Source of the DNA: a virus
Length of the DNA stretch: 64,000 nt
Direction: 5' to 3' (one strand)
IMG/VR virus record: IMGVR_UViG_3300042887_001883
Span: 1 to 64,000 of that record
The notes under the pieces are model-generated. The model was not told the DNA's origin, did not search any database, and saw nothing but the letters and a program-made list of their open reading frames with translations. Shown here in pieces: positions 1 to 9,296 of this stretch (the first letter of the stretch is position 1; each line of letters begins with the position of its first letter). The translations under genes were made by a program, and so were the position numbers.

Positions 1-120
1 TTTAGGTGATAATATAATCTTCTTACCTAAAAATACTCCCATATTAAACCCATCCTCTCCAGAGGATGCAGTTTGATTCAATTTATCAGGATTGGCATGA
101 TACTTATATAGATTTAACAT
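1..120 (-). CDS. Partial hypothetical protein (N-terminus only; continues beyond the window start)
   Basis: ATG at 118-120, 6 nt after the stop of the 127..906 gene. The frame is open to the edge: MLNLYKYHANPDKLNQTASSGEDGFNMGVFLGKKIILSPK. Confidence 0.6.
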   Translation of the reverse strand, partial: MLNLYKYHANPDKLNQTASSGEDGFNMGVFLGKKIILSPK

Positions 121-126
121 TATTAA

Positions 127-906
127 TTACCCATGATGATAATATTTCTTAATTAACATATTCAAAAATGTTGTGTACTGTGGGAATTTTGACAAATATT
201 CAATATCACCAGGTTTATTAACAATATTAACATTTTTTTCATCTTGAAATTCGTTACGTTCCAAATGTATACAGAACTTTTGATTACCAGCATTAATAAT
301 ATATAAATGTCCAGAATGATTATAATCATCAAATTTATTTTCTGATTCTTTAGCACTAACACACCATGTAGTACCACTACCATATTCTATAGAGGTAGCT
401 TCGTTCTTAGGAATAATAACCTTAAAATTGGGTGTGTCAAATAGAATATGAATATTACCTTCTTCCTGTTCAGCCTTTAATTTAGCATTTGACCATAATT
501 CATTAGTCACATATTTGGTCTTCATAGGGTCATGCGTTACAGCATGCTTTAAATCTAATACACTATAATGTGATAAATCTGTCTTCTCAATAACACCACG
601 TTGTTTCAATTTTTCAAATTCTGCAATATCAGTAGTCAATTCATGAATATCACCCATATGGAAATGTTGACCAATATACTGATTAATTAACCATTCAATA
701 TACTTTTTACCAATATTAGCAGATAAATATTTTACCAAATCTACAGCATTACTAAATTGTGGTTTATTAGATTTATCATTATTATATGCAGTCATAATAT
801 CTTTTTCAAATTTCTGACCTAAAACATCCTCTTTAGCCTCTACTATAATATTCCAATCTATCGGCATACCTGCCAATTCTAATAATCTATTTAAATCTTT
901 CTGCAT
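127..906 (-). CDS. Hypothetical phage protein with PcfJ-like 'G-x-x-T-x-W-C' region; possible head-packaged protein
   Basis: 259-aa ORF with motif PKNEATSIEYGSGTTWCVS...LYII and leader LNRLLELAG..IIVE|A. GATAAATA late-type promoter on the minus strand at 943-950. Confidence 0.6.
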   Translation of the reverse strand: MQKDLNRLLELAGMPIDWNIIVEAKEDVLGQKFEKDIMTAYNNDKSNKPQFSNAVDLVKYLSANIGKKYIEWLINQYIGQHFHMGDIHELTTDIAEFEKLKQRGVIEKTDLSHYSVLDLKHAVTHDPMKTKYVTNELWSNAKLKAEQEEGNIHILFDTPNFKVIIPKNEATSIEYGSGTTWCVSAKESENKFDDYNHSGHLYIINAGNQKFCIHLERNEFQDEKNVNIVNKPGDIEYLSKFPQYTTFLNMLIKKYYHHG

Positions 907-998
907 TATGATAATTCCCGTGAAGAATAATATGAATTCAATTATTTATCATTGTTTAAGGGTAAAGATGGTTAGGATTATTAATATTAATATGATAT

Positions 999-1248
999 TG
1001 GTTATTATCATTATGATGAAACCATTAAGATGATTTAAAACCATTGATGTTGTTATGGTTATTATCATTAGGATGAAACCATTAAGATGATTAAAAGACC
1101 ATTGATGTTGTTATGGTTATTATCATTAGGATGAAACCATTAAGATGATTAAAAGACCATTGATGTTGTTATGGTTATTATCATTAGGATGATACCATTA
1201 AGATGATTAAAAACCATTGATGTTGTTATGGTTATTATCATTAGGATG
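999..1248. repeat. Non-coding tandem array of about 4.3 copies of a 57-58-bp unit
   Basis: Units start at 999, 1056, 1114, 1172 and 1229 (partial). Consensus TGGTTATTATCATTAGGATGAAACCATTAAGATGATTAAAAGACCATTGATGTTGTTA. No unique spacers. Confidence 0.95.
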
Positions 1249-1258
1249 GTAAAGAGAG

Positions 1259-1266
1259 AATAAATA
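1259..1266 (+). promoter_or_regulatory. T4-like late promoter (AATAAATA)
   Basis: Variant of TATAAATA about 30 nt upstream of the protease start. Confidence 0.55.
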
Positions 1267-1297
1267 CCGTATTGATATTTTAAAATAGGTTAAAACA

Positions 1298-1930
1298 ATG
1301 AAAACACAATTATTAGTAGAAGATATGTTACCTGACCAATCAGGATTTATTACCGAATCTGCCACTGATGGTAAAGATATGTATATCAGTGGAATTTTTA
1401 TGGAGAGTGGGGTAAAAAATAGGAATGGGAGGATTTACCAGCTTGAAGAAATGACTAATGCAGTCAAACAAGTTCAGGAAAATATTAAGAATAATCAAAT
1501 TTTTTGGGGCGAATTGGACCATAGTAATTCATTACAAATCTCAAGTGACCGTGTTTCGCATATGGTTACCGAATTGAGAATGGAAGGTAATCAAGTATTT
1601 GGTAAGGCCAAAATTTTAGATACCCCATGTGGTAAAATCGCCAAAGTTTTAATTAAAGAATCTGGTTCGCGTATGGGCGTATCCAGTAGAGGGTCAGGTT
1701 CGGTAGATGAATCTGGAGTCGTGTCAAATTTTTCACTAATTTCTGTGGATATTGTCCTAAATCCAAGTTGTGCATCTGCTGTCCCAACTGCAATTTATGA
1801 AAGTTTAGAAGCATCTATTAAAGGCCGCCATATTCTTACATTAGCTGAACAAATACAAGAAGATTCATCTGCACAAAAATATTTAGTTACTGAATTAAAA
1901 CAATGGATGAATAGTTTTTTGAAAAAATAA
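1298..1930 (+). CDS. gp21: Prohead core protein protease (T4 gp21-like)
   Basis: Motifs ISGIFME..KNRNGRIY, GELDH, RVSH, GKAKILDTPCG, GVSSRGSGS and DIVLNPS are typical of gp21. Confidence 0.95.
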   Translation: MKTQLLVEDMLPDQSGFITESATDGKDMYISGIFMESGVKNRNGRIYQLEEMTNAVKQVQENIKNNQIFWGELDHSNSLQISSDRVSHMVTELRMEGNQVFGKAKILDTPCGKIAKVLIKESGSRMGVSSRGSGSVDESGVVSNFSLISVDIVLNPSCASAVPTAIYESLEASIKGRHILTLAEQIQEDSSAQKYLVTELKQWMNSFLKK

Positions 1931-1947
1931 TATTCATCAATAATAAT

Positions 1948-1987
1948 AAACCATCTTAACCATAAAAATAAATGGTTAAGATGGTTT
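1948..1987. terminator. AT-rich hairpin after the protease gene (16-bp stem); possible terminator or protein-binding dyad
   Basis: AAACCATCTTAACCAT-N8-ATGGTTAAGATGGTTT, followed by TTATTA. Confidence 0.6.
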
Positions 1988-2009
1988 TTATTATGTACAT
2001 TATAAAACA

Positions 2010-2105
2010 TATAAATAGATATGGATTCGCGTAATTACCAGTTACCAATCCTCTAACCTTTTTTCAACCTTTAAACACTCGGAAGATTAGCATGAATCTA
2101 TTTAT
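2010..2105 (+). promoter_or_regulatory. Late promoter TATAAATA with a structured leader upstream of the endonuclease gene
   Basis: TATAAATA at 2010-2017. ATAAATAGAT (2011-2020) is the reverse complement of ATCTATTTAT (2096-2105). Internal hairpin GGATT..GTAAT-TACCA-GTTAC..AATCC. Confidence 0.55.
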
Positions 2106-2180
2106 GTATATTTTTACATATAATTTACAATTCGTCAATATATTCTTAATGTTTAGGTTACAACATATAGGATATATATT

Positions 2181-4193
2181 ATGTATACTCAACTTAATAC
2201 AAAAACACCATATTTTTATATAATTCGTCATATTATCACATCAAAAATGTATGCTGGGTGTAGATATGCTAAAAAATGTCACCCATCAGAATTATTACAA
2301 CCAGACGGATATCATACATCGTCAAAAATAATTAATAATATTATTAAATCCGAAGGATTGGTAGCATTTGAGATTTTAAGAATTGATACCAATTTAGATG
2401 GTTTTGCTGCCTATGAATATGAATCTGCGTTTTTAGATATTATGAAATGTGCAACCTCTGATACTTGGTATAATAAAACTAATAATAGTTCGACATTCGT
2501 ACAAGATAAAAATACGATATTAACATGTCAATATTGTAATATCTCTATGAACACACCATCTAATTTCATAAAATATCATGGTGACAACTGTAAACACAAC
2601 CCCAATCATAAATCAACTATATATACATGTGATTATTGTGATTATACTTCTACCGATAAATCTGTTATTACGAAATACCATAATGTTAAATGTAAAAAAC
2701 ATCCTAATTATGTACAACCACAAATAGAATGTGAACATTGTGGTGTTATTTGTGGCAATACTGCATCATATAAAACTCATCATGGTGATAATTGTCCAAA
2801 AAAACCAAATTATGTACCAGCATTTATTAAATCATGCGAACATTGTGGTAAGGTATGTACTTTACCATCTCAATATACTAGAAATCATGGTCACAAATGT
2901 CCTAAAAATCCCAATTATGACCCAGTGTTATATCATTGTGATTTTTGTAATAATGATGTTACTGATTTAACTGAATATAAAAGATACCATGGTGATAACT
3001 GCAATAGTAATCCCAATAAAGTAAAACAAGTATTTTATAAAACATGTGAATTTTGCGGACACAATTGTTCATCTAAACTATTATATACTAGAGACCATGG
3101 TGCTAAATGTTTAAAGAATCCTGATTATACTCCACCAATATATCATTGTGATTGTTGTGGTCAAGATGTGTTAACTTTAACTGCATTAAAACGATTCCAT
3201 GGAGTGAAATGTAAAAAACATCCAAATTATGTTGCGGTTAAAGATGTAACATGTGAACATTGTGGGGTAGAATCCAATAAATTACTTTATAGTTTATATC
3301 ATGGTGAAAAATGCAAAAGTAACCCAAATTATGTTACCACTACAATTAAATGTGAATGGTGTGGTTATGACTGTCCTACACAATCTGAATACACTAAACG
3401 GCATGGAAATAATTGTAAAAAACATCCTGAATATAAACCAACCATTTATAAAATATGTGAGGAATGTGGTACATCATGTGAAAATAAATCACAATATAAA
3501 AATCATGGAAAGAATTGTACACAAAATATAACCTCAACATATTGTGAATATTGCAACAGAACAATTACACACAAAATGAATTTTAAAGAATATCATGGTG
3601 AAAACTGTAACCAACATCCAAAAAATTTGGTAATATATGAGTGTGGTGTGTGTGGAACCATATTATCTACACAAGGTAGTTATAATAGACATAAAAAAAC
3701 GTGTAAATTTAAATATGTTATTTTAAAAATAATATCTATATGTGATAAAGATACCATGAATCCATTATTAGATTATCCAATTACTAATAATAAGGTTACA
3801 GTCAATAAATCAAAGAAACCAATAAAATATGATACTACAGAAAAAAGAGGGTCTATGTATGGTAGACTTGGGGTTGATAATCCAAATTATGGTAAAACAT
3901 TATCAGTTGAACATAAAAAGAAAATTAGTGATGGATGTAAAAATAAAAATATTGGTGCCGCTAATAAGTCTGCTATTGAATATCACTTAACAGACCCCAC
4001 TGGCAATTTACATATTATAAAAGGAGGATTTGAAAAATTTTGTAAGGAACATAATATTTCCGAAAAAGTTTTAAGACGACATATGAATAAAGGTATTATA
4101 CCAACTATTGAAAGTAGCAGTTCTACCGAAAAAAGTAGAAACACATATGGATGGTCTGGCACCAACATTGGTAAGGTTAACGTAAAATCTTAA
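2181..4193 (+). CDS. GIY-YIG (Seg-like) homing endonuclease with 12 tandem C2HC zinc fingers, a NUMOD3-like motif and a C-terminal DNA-binding-like domain
   Basis: N-terminal YFY-x10-YAG..GYHTSS..YE..WYNKT. Twelve C-x2-C-x12/13-H-x3-C units at nt 2526-3704. NPNYGKTLSVEHKKKIS is NUMOD3-like. SD-like AGGA upstream. Confidence 0.8.
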   Translation: MYTQLNTKTPYFYIIRHIITSKMYAGCRYAKKCHPSELLQPDGYHTSSKIINNIIKSEGLVAFEILRIDTNLDGFAAYEYESAFLDIMKCATSDTWYNKTNNSSTFVQDKNTILTCQYCNISMNTPSNFIKYHGDNCKHNPNHKSTIYTCDYCDYTSTDKSVITKYHNVKCKKHPNYVQPQIECEHCGVICGNTASYKTHHGDNCPKKPNYVPAFIKSCEHCGKVCTLPSQYTRNHGHKCPKNPNYDPVLYHCDFCNNDVTDLTEYKRYHGDNCNSNPNKVKQVFYKTCEFCGHNCSSKLLYTRDHGAKCLKNPDYTPPIYHCDCCGQDVLTLTALKRFHGVKCKKHPNYVAVKDVTCEHCGVESNKLLYSLYHGEKCKSNPNYVTTTIKCEWCGYDCPTQSEYTKRHGNNCKKHPEYKPTIYKICEECGTSCENKSQYKNHGKNCTQNITSTYCEYCNRTITHKMNFKEYHGENCNQHPKNLVIYECGVCGTILSTQGSYNRHKKTCKFKYVILKIISICDKDTMNPLLDYPITNNKVTVNKSKKPIKYDTTEKRGSMYGRLGVDNPNYGKTLSVEHKKKISDGCKNKNIGAANKSAIEYHLTDPTGNLHIIKGGFEKFCKEHNISEKVLRRHMNKGIIPTIESSSSTEKSRNTYGWSGTNIGKVNVKS

Positions 4194-4205
4194 CAAACTA
4201 TTTTT

Positions 4206-4242
4206 AACCCTTCTAACCATCAATATAATGGTTAGAAGGGTT
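4206..4242. terminator. AT-rich hairpin just after the endonuclease stop, related in sequence to the 1948-1987 hairpin
   Basis: AACCCTTCTAACCAT-N7-ATGGTTAGAAGGGTT followed by TTT. Confidence 0.6.
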
Positions 4243-4279
4243 TTTATATTCTTCATTATTTACAATTATCAAATAGTAT

Positions 4280-4310
4280 AAAAAAAGCCCCTCCTACGGA
4301 GGGGCTTTTT
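4280..4310. terminator. Bidirectional rho-independent terminator
   Basis: A7-GCCCCTCC-TAC-GGAGGGGC-T5 between convergent genes. Confidence 0.9.
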
Positions 4311-4337
4311 CAAAGTATCTTAATTATTAAGTATCAA

Positions 4338-4655
4338 TTAATAATCTTCATCATCTTCATCTTTTGATGATTTTTCACTAGAATCATTTTCATCATCTAG
4401 TTCATCTTCATCATCTTGATTTTCATCATCATTTTCACTAGACTCATTTTCATCATCTAGTTCATCTTCATCATCTTGATTTTCTTCACTATTTTCTTCA
4501 TCATCTAAAGAATCTTCTTCATCATCTTCATCAGATTCAATTAGTTTAGATAGTTTATTAGTGACATACTCGTGAAATACTGATTCTGCTAGAACAAGGT
4601 CTTCATTGACAATAGCCGAAACCATTTCATCAATTTTATCTAAATGTGTAGTCAT
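4338..4655 (-). CDS. Small highly acidic protein, probable prohead core protein (gp67/gp68-like)
   Basis: Helical N-terminus, then a D/E-rich tail with a 60-bp internal duplication. L-I-E possible protease site. SD GGAG and TATAAATA (minus strand, 4699-4706) upstream. Confidence 0.6.
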   Translation of the reverse strand: MTTHLDKIDEMVSAIVNEDLVLAESVFHEYVTNKLSKLIESDEDDEEDSLDDEENSEENQDDEDELDDENESSENDDENQDDEDELDDENDSSEKSSKDEDDEDY

Positions 4656-4736
4656 ATTTTTAAGGCTCCGTTAACGGTTGTATATAATCATGATAATATA
4701 TTTATATCAAAATGATTACGGTATGATTTTTTGATG

Positions 4737-4753
4737 TATTTATATTATAAATA
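4737..4753. promoter_or_regulatory. Back-to-back late promoters
   Basis: TATTTATA (4737-4744, minus-strand TATAAATA) and TATAAATA (4746-4753). Confidence 0.7.
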
Positions 4754-4784
4754 TAGGATACAAATTATCATTAGGGTAAAAAAG

Positions 4785-7700
4785 ATGGCTGAATTGAATG
4801 ACCAATATCTAAATAGTTTAAGAGTTGCATTATTCCAATTTACGAGGGAATCTAGTAATTTTACATCAGTATTGTCAGAAGTATTTGATAATTTAAATAC
4901 ATCATCATCACAATCATCCAGACAAATTGATAATAGTACCAAATCTGTTAAAGGATTTGGAGATGCTATTTCATCATCATCTACCTATTTAAAAGATTTT
5001 AAAAGTTATGTATCTAATAATAGTAAGAATATAGCAGAATCCTCTAAGGCTGTTAAAGAGTATACATCACAATTATCAGAATTAAAACAAAAAAGTGTTG
5101 ATATTAATAGAAATTGGGGAGCATTGAATAGTGCACTAAGAAATAATATTGCTGCTTCGGAATCATCAACAAGGCAACACGAGCTTAATAAGGCTATATT
5201 ATCTAAAGAGTATGCCGAGGCTGACCAACGGTTTAAGGATGCCCGAAATATTAGTGGTGCTTTGGCTAGTGATACTCTTGCATTAGGAGAAGCTGCTGGA
5301 AAATTAAAAAAACAATTAGATGATTTAACTAATTTACAAATTGGAAAGATTGACCTTAATGCTCAAATCAAAACCCAGAATCAAGAATTATATAAGAACA
5401 TATATGATACCTTTGGTAATTCATTATTAACCATTGATAGTTTAATAAATGAAAAGACCTCATCATGGAAAGGATTAAAAGGTAGCATTGATGAATTAGC
5501 TAGGGATGCATTTAAAGATACATCATTAAACATATCAAAAGAATTCCAGAAGAATGGTATTCCAGGATTGCATGATTATAATAAGGCATTAGCGGAGGCT
5601 TTATTATCATTAGAACGTACTGGTGGAGTCATTGATGAGAGTAATTTTTTAATTATTGATAAATTTCAACAATTTGCGGAAAAGGTTGGAGATAGTTCAG
5701 AATATGTAAAAAATATCAATACTGCTTTAAATGCTCATGTTAAGAGTATTGTAGATGGTAAAACACCTGAAGAGGCTAAAACCTCTATAAGTGGTGATAT
5801 TGTTGATAAATTGACAGAATCATATCAAGGTAATATAGAAGCATTAGATAAGTTTAGTAAGAGCATTAATAAGACTTTTACGAAACATCAGATAGCATTT
5901 TCTACTATTATAGATAAACAATTATCTGAACAAAGTAATATCTTTGGTAAATTTATCTATAATTTTGGTAAGGGTGCGGTGCAGGGTGGTGCTGGTGGTA
6001 CTGAGGGTATGACTAATGCTTTGAATCAATTTACTGGTTCATTGAGAGAAGGTATATTACCAGCATTAAAGAGTATTGCATTAGGTTCTAAGGATTATAT
6101 AACATCTGAGGCTCAGGCATTATTTAATGGTATTAAATTAGATAGGGTATCATCACAAAAATTACAAGAGGGTGATTCAGCAGCATTAAAAAAATTAGGA
6201 GATTCTAAGGCTATTTGGCAGAATATGTCAGGTGGTATTGATGACTTTACTAAACAACAATTAGATACATCAAAAACATTTAGGGATGTTATTGGTGTTG
6301 ATGCTGAGATGCGTACTAAAGAGTTTGTAGAATTGATGAAGACTCAACAATCCCTTGGTGTATTAGATACTTCTGGTAAGGGTGGTGCTGAAAATGAAAA
6401 AAAATTAAAAGATATATTAAATGAGGCTAAAAAGATATCTGATGCTGGTATTTACAGTCAGACACAAACATTAGAAATATTTAATAATACGGTACGGTCT
6501 GCCGAATTTTTGAAAGTTTCTGCAGGTATGGATAAAAAACGACGCACTGCCCAAGAAATGGAGGTTATGACTACCATTAAATTTGCCAGTGCCTTGAATA
6601 TGTCTACTGAGGCTGCAAAAGCCTTTGCTATAGCATCTGCTTCTGCTGGTGCTAATTTGTCACCACAACAAATGATATCGAATGTAGCAACGACATTAAA
6701 AACTCAAAATATATTAGATTATTATGCTAAAGAATTGGGGGTTAAATCTGAGATTTCTGATATAGACCGTTCTAAAATGACGGAAATTGAAAATAAACCT
6801 GCCCAAATGCGTACTGACCAAGAAAAAGAGTTTTTTAATGAATTCTTGTTGAAGATGGTTAAACAAAATCAGGATGAACAAGCTAGATTAACTGAATTAT
6901 CAAAAGAAGCTGAGGCTCGTGGTGATAAAGCTGCTGTACAACAATATTCTGCTATGTCGGTACAATTAGCTAATCAATTTGATACCTCTATTGCAGAATA
7001 TAGTGGTGGTGAAAAAGATATTATTGCGGCATATGTTAAACAGTATCCAACAATGGATATGGCAAAAATCGAAAAAGACCGTAAAGAGGGTGAAACATTA
7101 ACACAGGCTATTGTTCGCCAAATGGACAAAAAAAGTGAAGAAAAGACGACAGAAAAAGATACCTTATATAATGATACTATTATAAACTTATCATCATTAG
7201 CGGCACAATGGAAGGCATTTACCGAAAATATTGTTGGTTCTAATATTTTAGCATTAGGAACTGCAGCATTAGGTATTTTATCAGTTGTTGCAGATTTGGG
7301 GGTATTAGCCAAAATGTTCGGTGGTGCGGCTGCCGTTGCCGAAGGTGGAGCTGCCGTTGCTGCTGCGGGAACTGCGGCGGGAGTCGCTGGTACTGCCGGT
7401 ATGGGTGCGGCAGCAGTAGCATTATTACCAGAATTGTTAGCAGCATTAGGGATTGCCGGGGGTGTTGCATTGTTTGCCTATGGTGCTAAAGGATTATATG
7501 ACAGTTTCTTTGGTGAGGGGGATAAAAAAGAAGACCGTGGTGATGCTATTCATGGTATTGTGGATGTTAATAATTTAGATATCTATACAAATCAGACTAC
7601 TGATGCTATTGATACACAGACACAAGAATTATTAAAAGGATTTACCAGTATTATGGGAAATCCAGATGATGTTAAAAATGCTATTAATAATAATTCTGTA

Positions 7701-9296
7701 ATAACTGTTAATAATTTAGATGTTTATACAAATCAAACTACTGATGCTATTAATAATCAAACATTAGATTTATTAAAAGGATTTACCAGTATTATGGGTA
7801 ATCCAGATGATGTTAAAAATGCTATTAATAATAATAATTCTGTAATAACTGTTAATAATTTAGATGTTTATACAAATCAAACTACTGATGCTATTAATAA
7901 TCAAACATTAGATTTATTAAAAGGATTTACCAGTATTATGGGTAATCCAGATGATGTTAAGAAAGCTATTGATGATAATACGGCAGCAGTAAAAGAAAAT
8001 ACTACAATATCTACAGATACCGCATCGGGTACTGATAAAAAAATAGAAACATTAACCTCATCTTTTGCGGCAACATTGGTAGCTGGTATACCAGTACATG
8101 CTGATAAACCATTAACTGATTATCAAGTTAAAATGACCGAATTATATATGCAAATGGGTAACAAATTGTCACCCGTTGTTCAATCTGCATATGATTTGGC
8201 TAAAAACATGAAAAATAATGCCACCGTTTCGGATGATACTAAACAATCTGCTACTATCCCTGACGTTATGAAAACAGTAGAAGATAGTAAAAAGATTCAA
8301 GAACAATCTACTATTATTAAAGAGGGTAATATTAGTATTGTTGATGTTAATAATTTAGATATGTATACTAATCAAGTAACCAATTCTATTGATAATCAAA
8401 CATTAGCATTATTAGCTGGATTTACTACTATTATGGGTAATCCTATAGATATACAATCAAATACTGACACAACTAAAGAACAATCTACTAGTTTCTCATT
8501 AAATGAAACCGCACAAAGCATTTTATCATTCCTATCAGAATTAAAAGACTTTGCTGGAATGGTTGGTATTGGTGGGGCAGCGGCAGCAGAAGGTGGTGTA
8601 GCCGCAGTAGGAGCTGCTGGTGTAGGAGCTGCTGGTGTAGGGGCAGCGGCAACGGCAGTATTACCTGAAATCCTTGCAGCATTAGGAATTGCTGGTGGTG
8701 TAGCATTATTTGCTTATGGTGCTAAAGGAATATATGATTATTTCACTGGTGATGGTCAAACGGAAGCTGATAAAGGTGATGCTATTCACGGTATGGTAGA
8801 TGTTAATAATTTAGATATGTATACCAATCAAGTAACTGATTCTATTGATATACAAACTCAAGAATTATTAAAAGGATTTACTACACTTATGGGTAATCCT
8901 ACTAAAATTAATGATATTGATGCTACTACATCATTAATTGATAAACTGGGAACCCCTATATCTACTGACACTTCTATACCGTTGGAAGGGTCAAAGCTAA
9001 CTAACCCTAATAACGGTAATACCAATATTGAACAGCCTACTGGTCCATTACCATCGGAAAAAATTAATAATACTGATATTAGTGTAGCATTAGAGGATTT
9101 AAAGACATTTTTAACGAATGAATTGATTGTTGGAATGTTATCAAAATTTGATGCATTGATTACTAATACTGGGAATACTGCTAAGAATACTGGTGATGAT
9201 GGGACACTTGGAGATTTGGTAGCAACATTAACAAAACCAGCATCTCAACCGTATGTTAGAGGAACGGTTGAGAATGCTGCTACCCTTACAGGGTAG
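4785..9296 (+). CDS. Probable tail tape-measure protein (about 1500 aa)
   Basis: Long helical/coiled-coil ORF with two Ala/Gly-rich hydrophobic segments and five VNNLDxYTNQ..MGNP repeats, near baseplate genes. Start moved to ATG 4785 because the late promoter overlaps the longer call. Confidence 0.65.
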   Translation: MAELNDQYLNSLRVALFQFTRESSNFTSVLSEVFDNLNTSSSQSSRQIDNSTKSVKGFGDAISSSSTYLKDFKSYVSNNSKNIAESSKAVKEYTSQLSELKQKSVDINRNWGALNSALRNNIAASESSTRQHELNKAILSKEYAEADQRFKDARNISGALASDTLALGEAAGKLKKQLDDLTNLQIGKIDLNAQIKTQNQELYKNIYDTFGNSLLTIDSLINEKTSSWKGLKGSIDELARDAFKDTSLNISKEFQKNGIPGLHDYNKALAEALLSLERTGGVIDESNFLIIDKFQQFAEKVGDSSEYVKNINTALNAHVKSIVDGKTPEEAKTSISGDIVDKLTESYQGNIEALDKFSKSINKTFTKHQIAFSTIIDKQLSEQSNIFGKFIYNFGKGAVQGGAGGTEGMTNALNQFTGSLREGILPALKSIALGSKDYITSEAQALFNGIKLDRVSSQKLQEGDSAALKKLGDSKAIWQNMSGGIDDFTKQQLDTSKTFRDVIGVDAEMRTKEFVELMKTQQSLGVLDTSGKGGAENEKKLKDILNEAKKISDAGIYSQTQTLEIFNNTVRSAEFLKVSAGMDKKRRTAQEMEVMTTIKFASALNMSTEAAKAFAIASASAGANLSPQQMISNVATTLKTQNILDYYAKELGVKSEISDIDRSKMTEIENKPAQMRTDQEKEFFNEFLLKMVKQNQDEQARLTELSKEAEARGDKAAVQQYSAMSVQLANQFDTSIAEYSGGEKDIIAAYVKQYPTMDMAKIEKDRKEGETLTQAIVRQMDKKSEEKTTEKDTLYNDTIINLSSLAAQWKAFTENIVGSNILALGTAALGILSVVADLGVLAKMFGGAAAVAEGGAAVAAAGTAAGVAGTAGMGAAAVALLPELLAALGIAGGVALFAYGAKGLYDSFFGEGDKKEDRGDAIHGIVDVNNLDIYTNQTTDAIDTQTQELLKGFTSIMGNPDDVKNAINNNSVITVNNLDVYTNQTTDAINNQTLDLLKGFTSIMGNPDDVKNAINNNNSVITVNNLDVYTNQTTDAINNQTLDLLKGFTSIMGNPDDVKKAIDDNTAAVKENTTISTDTASGTDKKIETLTSSFAATLVAGIPVHADKPLTDYQVKMTELYMQMGNKLSPVVQSAYDLAKNMKNNATVSDDTKQSATIPDVMKTVEDSKKIQEQSTIIKEGNISIVDVNNLDMYTNQVTNSIDNQTLALLAGFTTIMGNPIDIQSNTDTTKEQSTSFSLNETAQSILSFLSELKDFAGMVGIGGAAAAEGGVAAVGAAGVGAAGVGAAATAVLPEILAALGIAGGVALFAYGAKGIYDYFTGDGQTEADKGDAIHGMVDVNNLDMYTNQVTDSIDIQTQELLKGFTTLMGNPTKINDIDATTSLIDKLGTPISTDTSIPLEGSKLTNPNNGNTNIEQPTGPLPSEKINNTDISVALEDLKTFLTNELIVGMLSKFDALITNTGNTAKNTGDDGTLGDLVATLTKPASQPYVRGTVENAATLTG
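7629..7975 (+). repeat. Near-perfect in-frame tandem duplication (141/144-bp units)
   Basis: TTATTAAAAGGATTTACCAGTATTATGGG recurs at 7629, 7770 and 7914. Confidence 0.9.

Follow-up and report, generated by a model that had tools for sequence, protein, structure and literature searches.

A candidate homing endonuclease with twelve I-TevIII-type zinc fingers encoded beside the head protease gene of an uncultured jumbo phage

What use might a phage have for a protein in which a nuclease-like domain is followed by twelve zinc fingers in a row? The question is raised by a locus in the 64,000-nucleotide (nt) stretch of DNA analysed here (the window), which covers positions 1-64,000 of a 74-kb IMG/VR record (IMGVR_UViG_3300042887_001883) with a G+C content of ~30%. 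CheckV puts the completeness of the record at 21%, which at 74 kb makes it a fragment of a jumbo phage. A single open reading frame (ORF) at window positions 2181-4193 (+), taken from the ORF list and its translation and preceded by AGGA ~10 nt 5' of the ATG, encodes a protein of 670 amino acids (aa), designated P0001. A megablast search of window positions 1-8000 against 50,697 phage records gave zero matches, as did an NCBIfam scan of the 670-aa protein. We think it probable, at about 75%, that the gene encodes a free-standing Seg-type GIY-YIG homing endonuclease whose DNA-binding region is made up of an array of I-TevIII-type fingers together with a NUMOD3 motif and a small C-terminal domain. 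The coordinates of these and other features are collected in Table 1.

The ORF and its twelve finger motifs are established directly from the translation. The pattern C..C-x(11-13)-H-x3-C occurs exactly 12 times over aa 116-508, one unit following the next every 29-36 aa; amongst 20,000 residue shuffles the same pattern was absent from 19,316, found once in 677, found twice in 7 and never found more than twice. A profile of the finger scores each of the 12 units separately at 38-58 bits and, over the 74-kb record, identifies no second finger gene. The typical repeat has a period of 34 aa and a 12-residue linker of the K-x-N-P-N-Y type, with the proline four residues past the last Cys, and this linker is present in 10 of the 12 units, F10 and F12 being those that lack it. 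F12 reads C-x2-C-x3-L-x5-Y-x2-H-x3-C and is the only stretch to touch the Pfam zf-C2H2 family, below threshold (E 0.027, 15.4 bits vs a cut-off of 25.2). Identity between units averages 32.5% (standard deviation 8.3), with F4/F6 (54%) and F5/F7 (51%) giving the highest values in the matrix, making a two-finger duplication plausible. Tandem Repeats Finder (TRF) detects no DNA-level repeat within the window's own array, so its duplications are old. In an AlphaFold2 (AF2) model of aa 1-250, F1-F4 are each predicted to form two short strands and a helix (beta-beta-alpha) with a predicted local distance difference test score (pLDDT) of ~90. The top Foldseek matches of F1-F4 in the PDB are the DNA-bound arrays of CTCF, Aart, PRDM9 and ZBTB24 (best E 3.6e-4), with low TM-scores, as expected of flexible beads.

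Much of this had been anticipated in a preliminary description of the locus. The count of twelve C2HC units, the NP-type linker after most of them, the classical spacing of F12, the pairing of fingers 4-5 with 6-7 and the beta-beta-alpha fold (for F1-F4) all stand, and the twelve residue strings that it listed before the His match the translation without exception. It had also pictured a conserved scaffold with variable putative recognition helices. The scaffold is indeed conserved and the stretch before the His indeed variable, but the variation is not limited to the helix: the most variable finger positions are 6-7 (hairpin), 11-13 and 16-17 (helix) and several positions in the linker, with hairpin and linker varying as much as the helix. 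The aromatic residue at finger position 14 is conserved.

Where does such a finger come from? The motif CX2CX12-13HX3C was defined in I-TevIII by Robbins et al. 2007 (PMC1865063), who found about one zinc per finger, reported that changing Cys to Ala in either finger lowers both DNA binding and cleavage, and obtained footprints with 3' staggers suggestive of minor-groove contacts. A profile built from 51 fingers aligns with the second finger of an I-TevIII-like protein (hhalign 96.2%, E 2.1e-9), and the array matches phrog_12324 (E 5.4e-20) and phrog_27406 (E 4.6e-26), two groups that make up the I-TevIII family and are matched by an I-TevIII-like protein at 4.6e-162 and 5.9e-63, respectively. 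In tblastn searches the whole protein matched other sequences through its C-terminal domain only (in Salmonella phages) and the fingers surfaced only as a separate query: F1-F9 alone match I-TevIII and other annotated homing endonucleases of T4-type phages. These comparisons establish homology between the two fingers and identify that of the window, at the level of sequence, as the already known I-TevIII type and not a new one. The suggestion in the preliminary description that the array is without precedent in homing endonucleases therefore falls, the finger being a common module of phage endonucleases. The idea that the phage had picked up a C2H2 protein of eukaryotic type was also considered and was rejected, since ligands, linker and closest homologues are all those of phage endonucleases.

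How widespread the module is can be judged from a search of 1.84 billion representative proteins with the finger profile, which returned 2,347 proteins at E<=1e-3 and 217 at E<=1e-10. The best 150 of the 2,347 include 108 proteins with C2HC fingers and 41 classical C2H2 array proteins, the latter matching over the Cys-to-His part only. The 108 are mostly 200-450 aa long and carry two fingers (15 proteins), three (42), four (28), five (13), six (4), seven (3), eight (1), nine (1) or twelve (1). The sole twelve-finger protein in this tally is the orthologue of the window gene, and twelve is the highest finger count met in the analysis. When the 108 were scanned with Pfam together with the window protein (109 in all), SegE_GIY-YIG was found in 22, GIY-YIG in 21, NUMOD3 in 21, DUF7487 in 9, HNH_3 in 3 and HNH in 3, and no Pfam family covered the C2HC finger itself. 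The co-occurrence with GIY-YIG, SegE, NUMOD3 and HNH indicates that, within nucleases, the finger stands where a DNA-binding module would. Its modular distribution is plain and marks it as a DNA-binding module that phage homing endonucleases have shuffled widely, the window gene standing at the long extreme of the family.

Other long arrays place the same finger in tandem on different nuclease domains: P0036 combines an HNH domain with about ten such fingers and a terminal classical C2H2 finger, P0006 has eight fingers and P0010 joins a GIY-YIG domain to seven. Compared with the window protein they have fewer fingers, and their catalytic domains and linkers are different; we found no paper on any of them, nor any on long arrays of the I-TevIII-type finger in homing endonucleases or on a 'natural zinc finger nuclease'. 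At or close to the end of long C2HC arrays there is often a finger whose spacing or ligands resemble those of the classical C2H2 type, as in the last unit of P0036 (C-x2-C-x12-H-x5-H), the seventh unit of P0006 and F12 of the window protein.

The nuclease domain was recognised by predicted fold. A profile of its family had zero matches amongst PDB sequences even at E 10, making a fold search necessary. The AF2 model of aa 1-250 has a pLDDT of 88 overall and of 90-98 for aa 11-100, and the N-terminal domain is predicted to have the topology beta-beta-alpha-beta-alpha, a three-stranded sheet with flanking helices. In an unbiased VIA-align scan of 48,161 PDB representatives its top structural match is the catalytic domain of I-TevI (1ln0_A; Z 6.7, 84/92 residues, 3.4 A), and the top 17 rows hold seven more GIY-YIG nucleases (PD-T4-3, T4 EndoII, HIGLE, UvrC, two Slx1 and R.Eco29kI). 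Amongst viral models, Foldseek against BFVD matches it to Seg-like, SegD, SegE-like and other GIY-YIG homing endonucleases.

The first ~110 residues are common to 32 proteins, across which Y11, F12, Y13, Y24, G26, G43, Y44, T46, S47, S48, E81 and N98 are invariant. Y11-F-Y13 and Y24-A-G26, the equivalents of the GIY and YIG motifs at a distance of some 10 residues, are present in 32/32 family members and are set by hhalign, weakly (E 0.0086), on the GIY and YIG of a Pfam-positive GIY-YIG protein; the invariant E81 sits in a helix (aa 77-87). We accept the domain as a divergent Seg-type GIY-YIG domain on this modelled fold, as the preliminary description had proposed, even though Pfam is blind to it here. 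In 16/24 relatives (among P0012-P0034) the same N-terminal domain is joined to tandem DUF7487 (PF24308) repeats, which carry a 'YGV-x-N/H-x-x-Q' motif, and P0003 and P0004 have both DUF7487 repeats and fingers. The repeats look like another modular DNA-binding array able to replace the fingers; no paper mentioning DUF7487 was found.

At the other end of the protein, a linker of ~50 aa separates F12 from a marginal NUMOD3 motif, which scores 20.9 bits against a cut-off of 20.4 when the C-terminal 171 aa are scanned alone and 17.2 bits in the full protein; in the orthologue P0002 the score is 21.4 bits. The AF2 model of the C-terminal region is poor overall (pLDDT 55) and confident for aa 599-664 only (pLDDT ~80). 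This small domain gives weak fold matches, with AcrVA3 and the DNA-binding part of I-HmuI tied at Z 4.9 and the I-TevI DNA-binding domain at Z 2.9. It shares 34% identity with the C-terminal end of annotated GIY-YIG homing endonucleases from Salmonella phages and belongs to phrog_314 'homing endonuclease'; on the model and these matches it is probably a DNA-binding domain. The NUMOD3 and C-terminal domain also exist together as a separate 139-aa ORF (L003:5306-5725, L002:10532-10768, P0183-P0185), which in two array alleles lies ~136 nt past array genes ending KHKK and is found in three further protein clusters. This ORF could be a second subunit or the remnant of an older endonuclease.

Is the gene a fixed part of this phage lineage or a variable one? 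In 7/7 close contigs a finger endonuclease lies directly 3' of a head maturation protease gene (T4 gp21-like; phrog_207, E 2.5e-54), and it comes in four forms. The protease is 97-100% identical at the aa level in L002-L005 and L054, and L049 has 82% nt identity over the protease-endonuclease region. Type A (the window and L049) is the fused 670-aa form with 12 fingers in each member, the pair being colinear and 71% identical. Type B (L003) is a protein of 516 aa with 12 fingers that ends in KHKK and is followed by the separate 139-aa NUMOD3/C-terminal-domain ORF, and in type C (L002) an 11-finger protein of 479 aa precedes that same ORF. In type D (L004, L005 and L054) a finger gene with at least six fingers comes after an additional endonuclease of 292 aa, encoded on the other strand, so that the locus is a hot spot with, in this type, two endonuclease genes. 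The 292-aa endonuclease, located between the protease and finger genes (L005:1640-2518 (-), L004:8727-9605 (-) and L054:6727-7605 (-)), carries NUMOD3 and the same C-terminal domain and matches phrog_314 and phrog_10820.

The variable part of the locus has sharp edges. In blastn comparisons a cassette at ~1995-4273 is divergent or replaced among the relatives, with flanks that are 86-99% identical at the nt level and consist of the head protease gene on one side and a conserved 3' block on the other; similarity to L002 stops at ~1994, just past a hairpin with a 16-bp stem, and similarity to L003 and L049 restarts at 4274, beyond the terminator hairpin of the endonuclease gene. The two hairpins bracketing the cassette have a TAACCAT...ATGGTTA core in common, and it may be that the terminator came with the cassette or was copied by it. 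Just inside its left edge, 164 nt 5' of the start codon, lies TATAAATA, the consensus of T4 late promoters. A third terminator, GC-rich and on the opposite strand, serves a convergent gene for an acidic protein.

Within the cassette the arrays themselves differ. Outside the type A pair, fingers from different arrays average 34% identity, which is background, and a few units are common to arrays at shifted positions (e.g. window F6 and L003 F2, 66%). In the arrays of L005 and L002, TRF finds repeats of 102 bp (one finger) and 204 bp (two fingers) at 80-85% identity, showing that finger gain by tandem duplication is ongoing in the gene family. Finger gain, loss and replacement amongst the relatives are thus real, and with them the allelic diversity of the locus. 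The preliminary description, which had allowed for finger gain, loss or substitution, is borne out on this point, including recent one-finger duplications in two relatives.

It had further suggested a search for diversifying selection, and here the result went the other way. The ratio of non-synonymous to synonymous substitution rates (dN/dS), computed on the one orthologous pair (window vs L049) with a dS of 0.7-1.0 that is near saturation, is 0.22 for the N-terminal domain, 0.25 for the whole finger array and 0.50 for the C-terminus. Within the fingers it is 0.11 at the zinc-ligand scaffold positions and 0.32 in the stretch from the second Cys to the His. Values of 0.22-0.50 by region place the gene under purifying selection and, so far as its sequence tells, it is functional and constrained; in this near-saturated pair there is no sign of diversifying selection.

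Taken as a homing endonuclease, the protein would resemble beads on a string, with the GIY-YIG domain (aa 1-106) followed by the twelve C2HC fingers, NUMOD3 and the small C-terminal domain, encoded by a gene that an uncultured jumbo phage carries in the intergenic gap 3' of its head-protease gene. Judging from I-TevIII, I-TevI and the Seg proteins, it would use its fingers and C-terminal modules to bind a long asymmetric site close to the locus in co-infecting relatives without this allele, the GIY-YIG domain would then cut near the bound site, and repair of the cut would copy the gene and its flanking markers into the relative. On the precedent of I-TevI and I-BmoI, the nuclease presumably acts as a monomer. 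We infer that the 670-aa protein binds zinc, contacts DNA through its fingers, acts as a nuclease on a target and homes, and the folds of its nuclease domain and fingers are predicted ones.

Several observations weigh against this reading. The equivalent of the catalytic Arg is uncertain, R28 being R or K in most relatives and E in one. Pfam PF01541 and PF19835 give no match in P0001, and relatives of the N-terminal domain are reached only below threshold (best E 3e-4 for GIY-YIG and 1e-3 for SegE_GIY-YIG). The fold prediction for the array covers F1-F4; of F5-F12 only F12 was modelled, poorly (pLDDT <40). If every array read the same flank finger by finger, it would be hard to see why those found at one conserved locus are nearly unrelated. 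Finally, no empty site was found among related contigs using the protease (against IMG/VR and JGI metagenomes) or the downstream large protein (against IMG/VR) as queries, every contig retrieved already having an endonuclease, so no target could be inferred.

What the fingers might do within such an enzyme is a separate matter. They might be a true modular DNA reader, with a few bp recognised per 34-aa unit by a code distinct from that of eukaryotic C2H2 proteins and with GIY-YIG, HNH or Vsr-like nucleases retargeted by finger duplication, deletion or swap; each unrelated array at the locus would then read a different site, and the enzymes would be natural monomeric reprogrammable zinc-finger nucleases. 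We think this unlikely, and the 'naturally reprogrammable' nuclease of the preliminary description is a conjecture. A Zif268-like triplet code cannot be assumed because the I-TevIII footprints point to minor-groove contacts, and these footprints, the ruler role of the I-TevI finger and the unrelated arrays at one locus together counsel caution over any unit-by-unit reading. Somewhat less improbable, though still doubtful, is a homing endonuclease whose fingers have no base-reading code and serve as a ruler, as a low-specificity clamp on the backbone or minor groove, or in oligomerisation, leaving specificity mainly to the NUMOD3/C-terminal domain and the cleavage motif of the nuclease. I-TevI's zinc finger is a distance determinant and not a DNA reader (PMC2988022; PMC1865063), and in I-TevIII the 3' staggers suggest minor-groove contacts and the dimer interface is placed where the fingers begin (PMC1865063). 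Arrays that are almost unrelated at one conserved locus, variability spread across hairpin, helix and linker, and the encoding of array protein and NUMOD3 domain by separate ORFs in L002 and L003 would also suit fingers of this kind. Against them, Cys-to-Ala changes in either I-TevIII finger cut DNA binding (PMC1865063), twelve units under purifying selection (0.32 even in the variable stretch) would be costly for a mere spacer, and in many family members the fingers are the sole non-catalytic module.

The biological role could also differ from homing. An endonuclease at the locus in every close relative, in four forms and with no empty site found, two adjacent endonuclease genes in type D and recent finger duplications in L002 and L005 might all be expected of a weapon or exclusion nuclease acting between phages, each allele cutting rival alleles or co-infecting genomes, with array diversity the product of an arms race and not of classical homing. 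With only seven related contigs, however, the missing empty site is weak evidence, the sole orthologous pair is without positive selection, and the mechanism would be the same as in homing, differing in ecology and not in biochemistry; we regard this alternative as improbable. Least likely of all is that the nuclease domain is inactive and the protein a domesticated DNA-binding regulator (e.g. a repressor), or one whose fingers bind RNA or protein. The sub-threshold Pfam scores and uncertain Arg of the GIY-YIG domain would fit, I-TevI doubles as an autorepressor, and classical fingers in their CCHC variants can make contacts with proteins, which counts in the same direction. Yet the invariant Tyr, Glu and Asn residues are kept in 32 family members, the dN/dS of the N-terminal domain is low (0.22), and the locus acts as a variable cassette of the kind typical of mobile endonuclease genes.

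Among known systems, I-TevIII has the same CX2CX12-13HX3C motif followed by K-x-N-P-N, and in both proteins the fingers are C-terminal to the nuclease; it differs in having 2 fingers and an HNH catalytic domain, in being intron-encoded (in the nrdB group I intron of phage RB3, with a truncated form in T4) and in being a dimer, whereas the window protein, the product of a free-standing gene, pairs 12 fingers with a GIY-YIG domain and has the NUMOD3/C-terminal domain in addition. The Seg endonucleases (SegD, SegE; PF19835) share an N-terminal GIY-YIG domain, a modular C-terminal DNA-binding region with NUMOD3 and an intergenic position among conserved genes (head genes for the window gene), but they are ~200-300 aa long and without long finger arrays, and the window N-terminal domain is a divergent sub-family. 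Tandem beta-beta-alpha fingers, predicted here for F1-F4, are also found in eukaryotic poly-C2H2 arrays such as those of CTCF and PRDM9. In the window protein, however, Cys takes the place of His as fourth ligand in 12/12 fingers, the units repeat every 34 aa and are joined by a 12-residue NPNY linker (28 aa and TGEKP in the classical arrays), an aromatic residue is conserved four residues before the His, and Pfam zf-C2H2 is sub-threshold. Engineered Tev-zinc-finger fusions share with the window protein the design of a GIY-YIG domain plus a modular array. The same design, with a monomeric GIY-YIG domain, is found in engineered I-TevI fusions of the Tev-TALE (transcription activator-like effector) type (PMC4065259). 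I-TevI itself, from the T4 td intron, is likewise built as beads on a string in which a zinc finger separates the nuclease from the C-terminal DNA-binding domain, but its single Cys4 finger measures distance and does not bind DNA (PMC2988022), and there is no detectable sequence similarity.

Table 1. Positions of the endonuclease gene, its domains and neighbouring features in the window
Feature	Position	Strand	Basis
Whole gene, zinc-finger GIY-YIG homing endonuclease (candidate), 670 aa	2181-4193	+	ORF, translation
Divergent GIY-YIG (Seg/SegE-like) nuclease domain (predicted), aa 1-106	2181-2498	+	AF2, fold search
Array of 12 C2HC fingers, F1 first Cys to F12 last Cys	2526-3704	+	regular expression, profile
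F1, C2HC finger	2526-2591	+	
F2, C2HC finger	2628-2693	+	
F3, C2HC finger	2730-2795	+	
F4, C2HC finger	2835-2900	+	
F5, C2HC finger	2937-3002	+	
F6, C2HC finger	3045-3110	+	
F7, C2HC finger	3147-3212	+	
F8, C2HC finger	3252-3314	+	
F9, C2HC finger	3351-3416	+	
F10, C2HC finger, without NPN-type linker	3456-3518	+	
F11, C2HC finger	3543-3608	+	
F12, C2H2-like internal spacing, without NPN linker	3642-3704	+	pattern, Pfam
NUMOD3 motif, aa 566-583	3876-3929	+	Pfam PF07460
C-terminal small domain, aa 599-664	3975-4172	+	AF2, homology, PHROG
58-bp tandem repeat	999-1248		
Head maturation protease (T4 gp21-like), 5' neighbour	1298-1930	+	phrog_207
Hairpin, 16-bp stem, 3' of head protease gene	1948-1987	.	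terminator scan
TATAAATA	2010-2017		
Hairpin terminator 3' of endonuclease gene	4206-4242	+	terminator scan
Third terminator, GC-rich	4281-4311	-	
Acidic protein, 105 aa	4338-4655	-	
Large protein, 1,521 aa	4731-9296		

The surroundings of the locus have repeats of their own. An intergenic tandem repeat 5' of the protease gene consists of 4.4 copies of a 58-bp unit at 97% identity (or of a 115-bp unit); the 58-bp unit contains AACCAT/ATGGTT words like those of the hairpins flanking the endonuclease gene, and its copy number varies among relatives. On the 3' side, the acidic protein of 105 aa, the C-terminal two thirds of which are nearly all Asp, Glu and Ser, is conserved in L003 with a different length of acidic repeat. 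Beyond it lies a 1,521-aa protein with no PHROG match, which has Gly/Ala-rich hydrophobic stretches and several ~45-aa repeats (VDVNNLD-YTNQ-T-D-I-NQT-LL-GFT-IMGNP) in a copy number that differs from that in L003; it may be a tape-measure or ejection protein.

What stands out here is the length of the array, twelve fingers being unusual, and the allelic diversity of arrays, the finger type itself being known. Accounts of homing endonucleases usually present a nuclease and a few small DNA-binding modules, and in this protein the I-TevIII finger is multiplied into twelve regular units, an array comparable in length to eukaryotic poly-zinc-finger readers and TALE-like in the length of its repeat. 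The locus amounts to a natural experiment, in which near-identical phages carry four different arrays, some of them with fresh one-finger duplications. If the fingers do not read DNA unit by unit, the phage's retention of twelve under purifying selection would still need explaining; if they do, matching each array to its target could bring a second zinc-finger recognition code to light, together with a compact nuclease scaffold.

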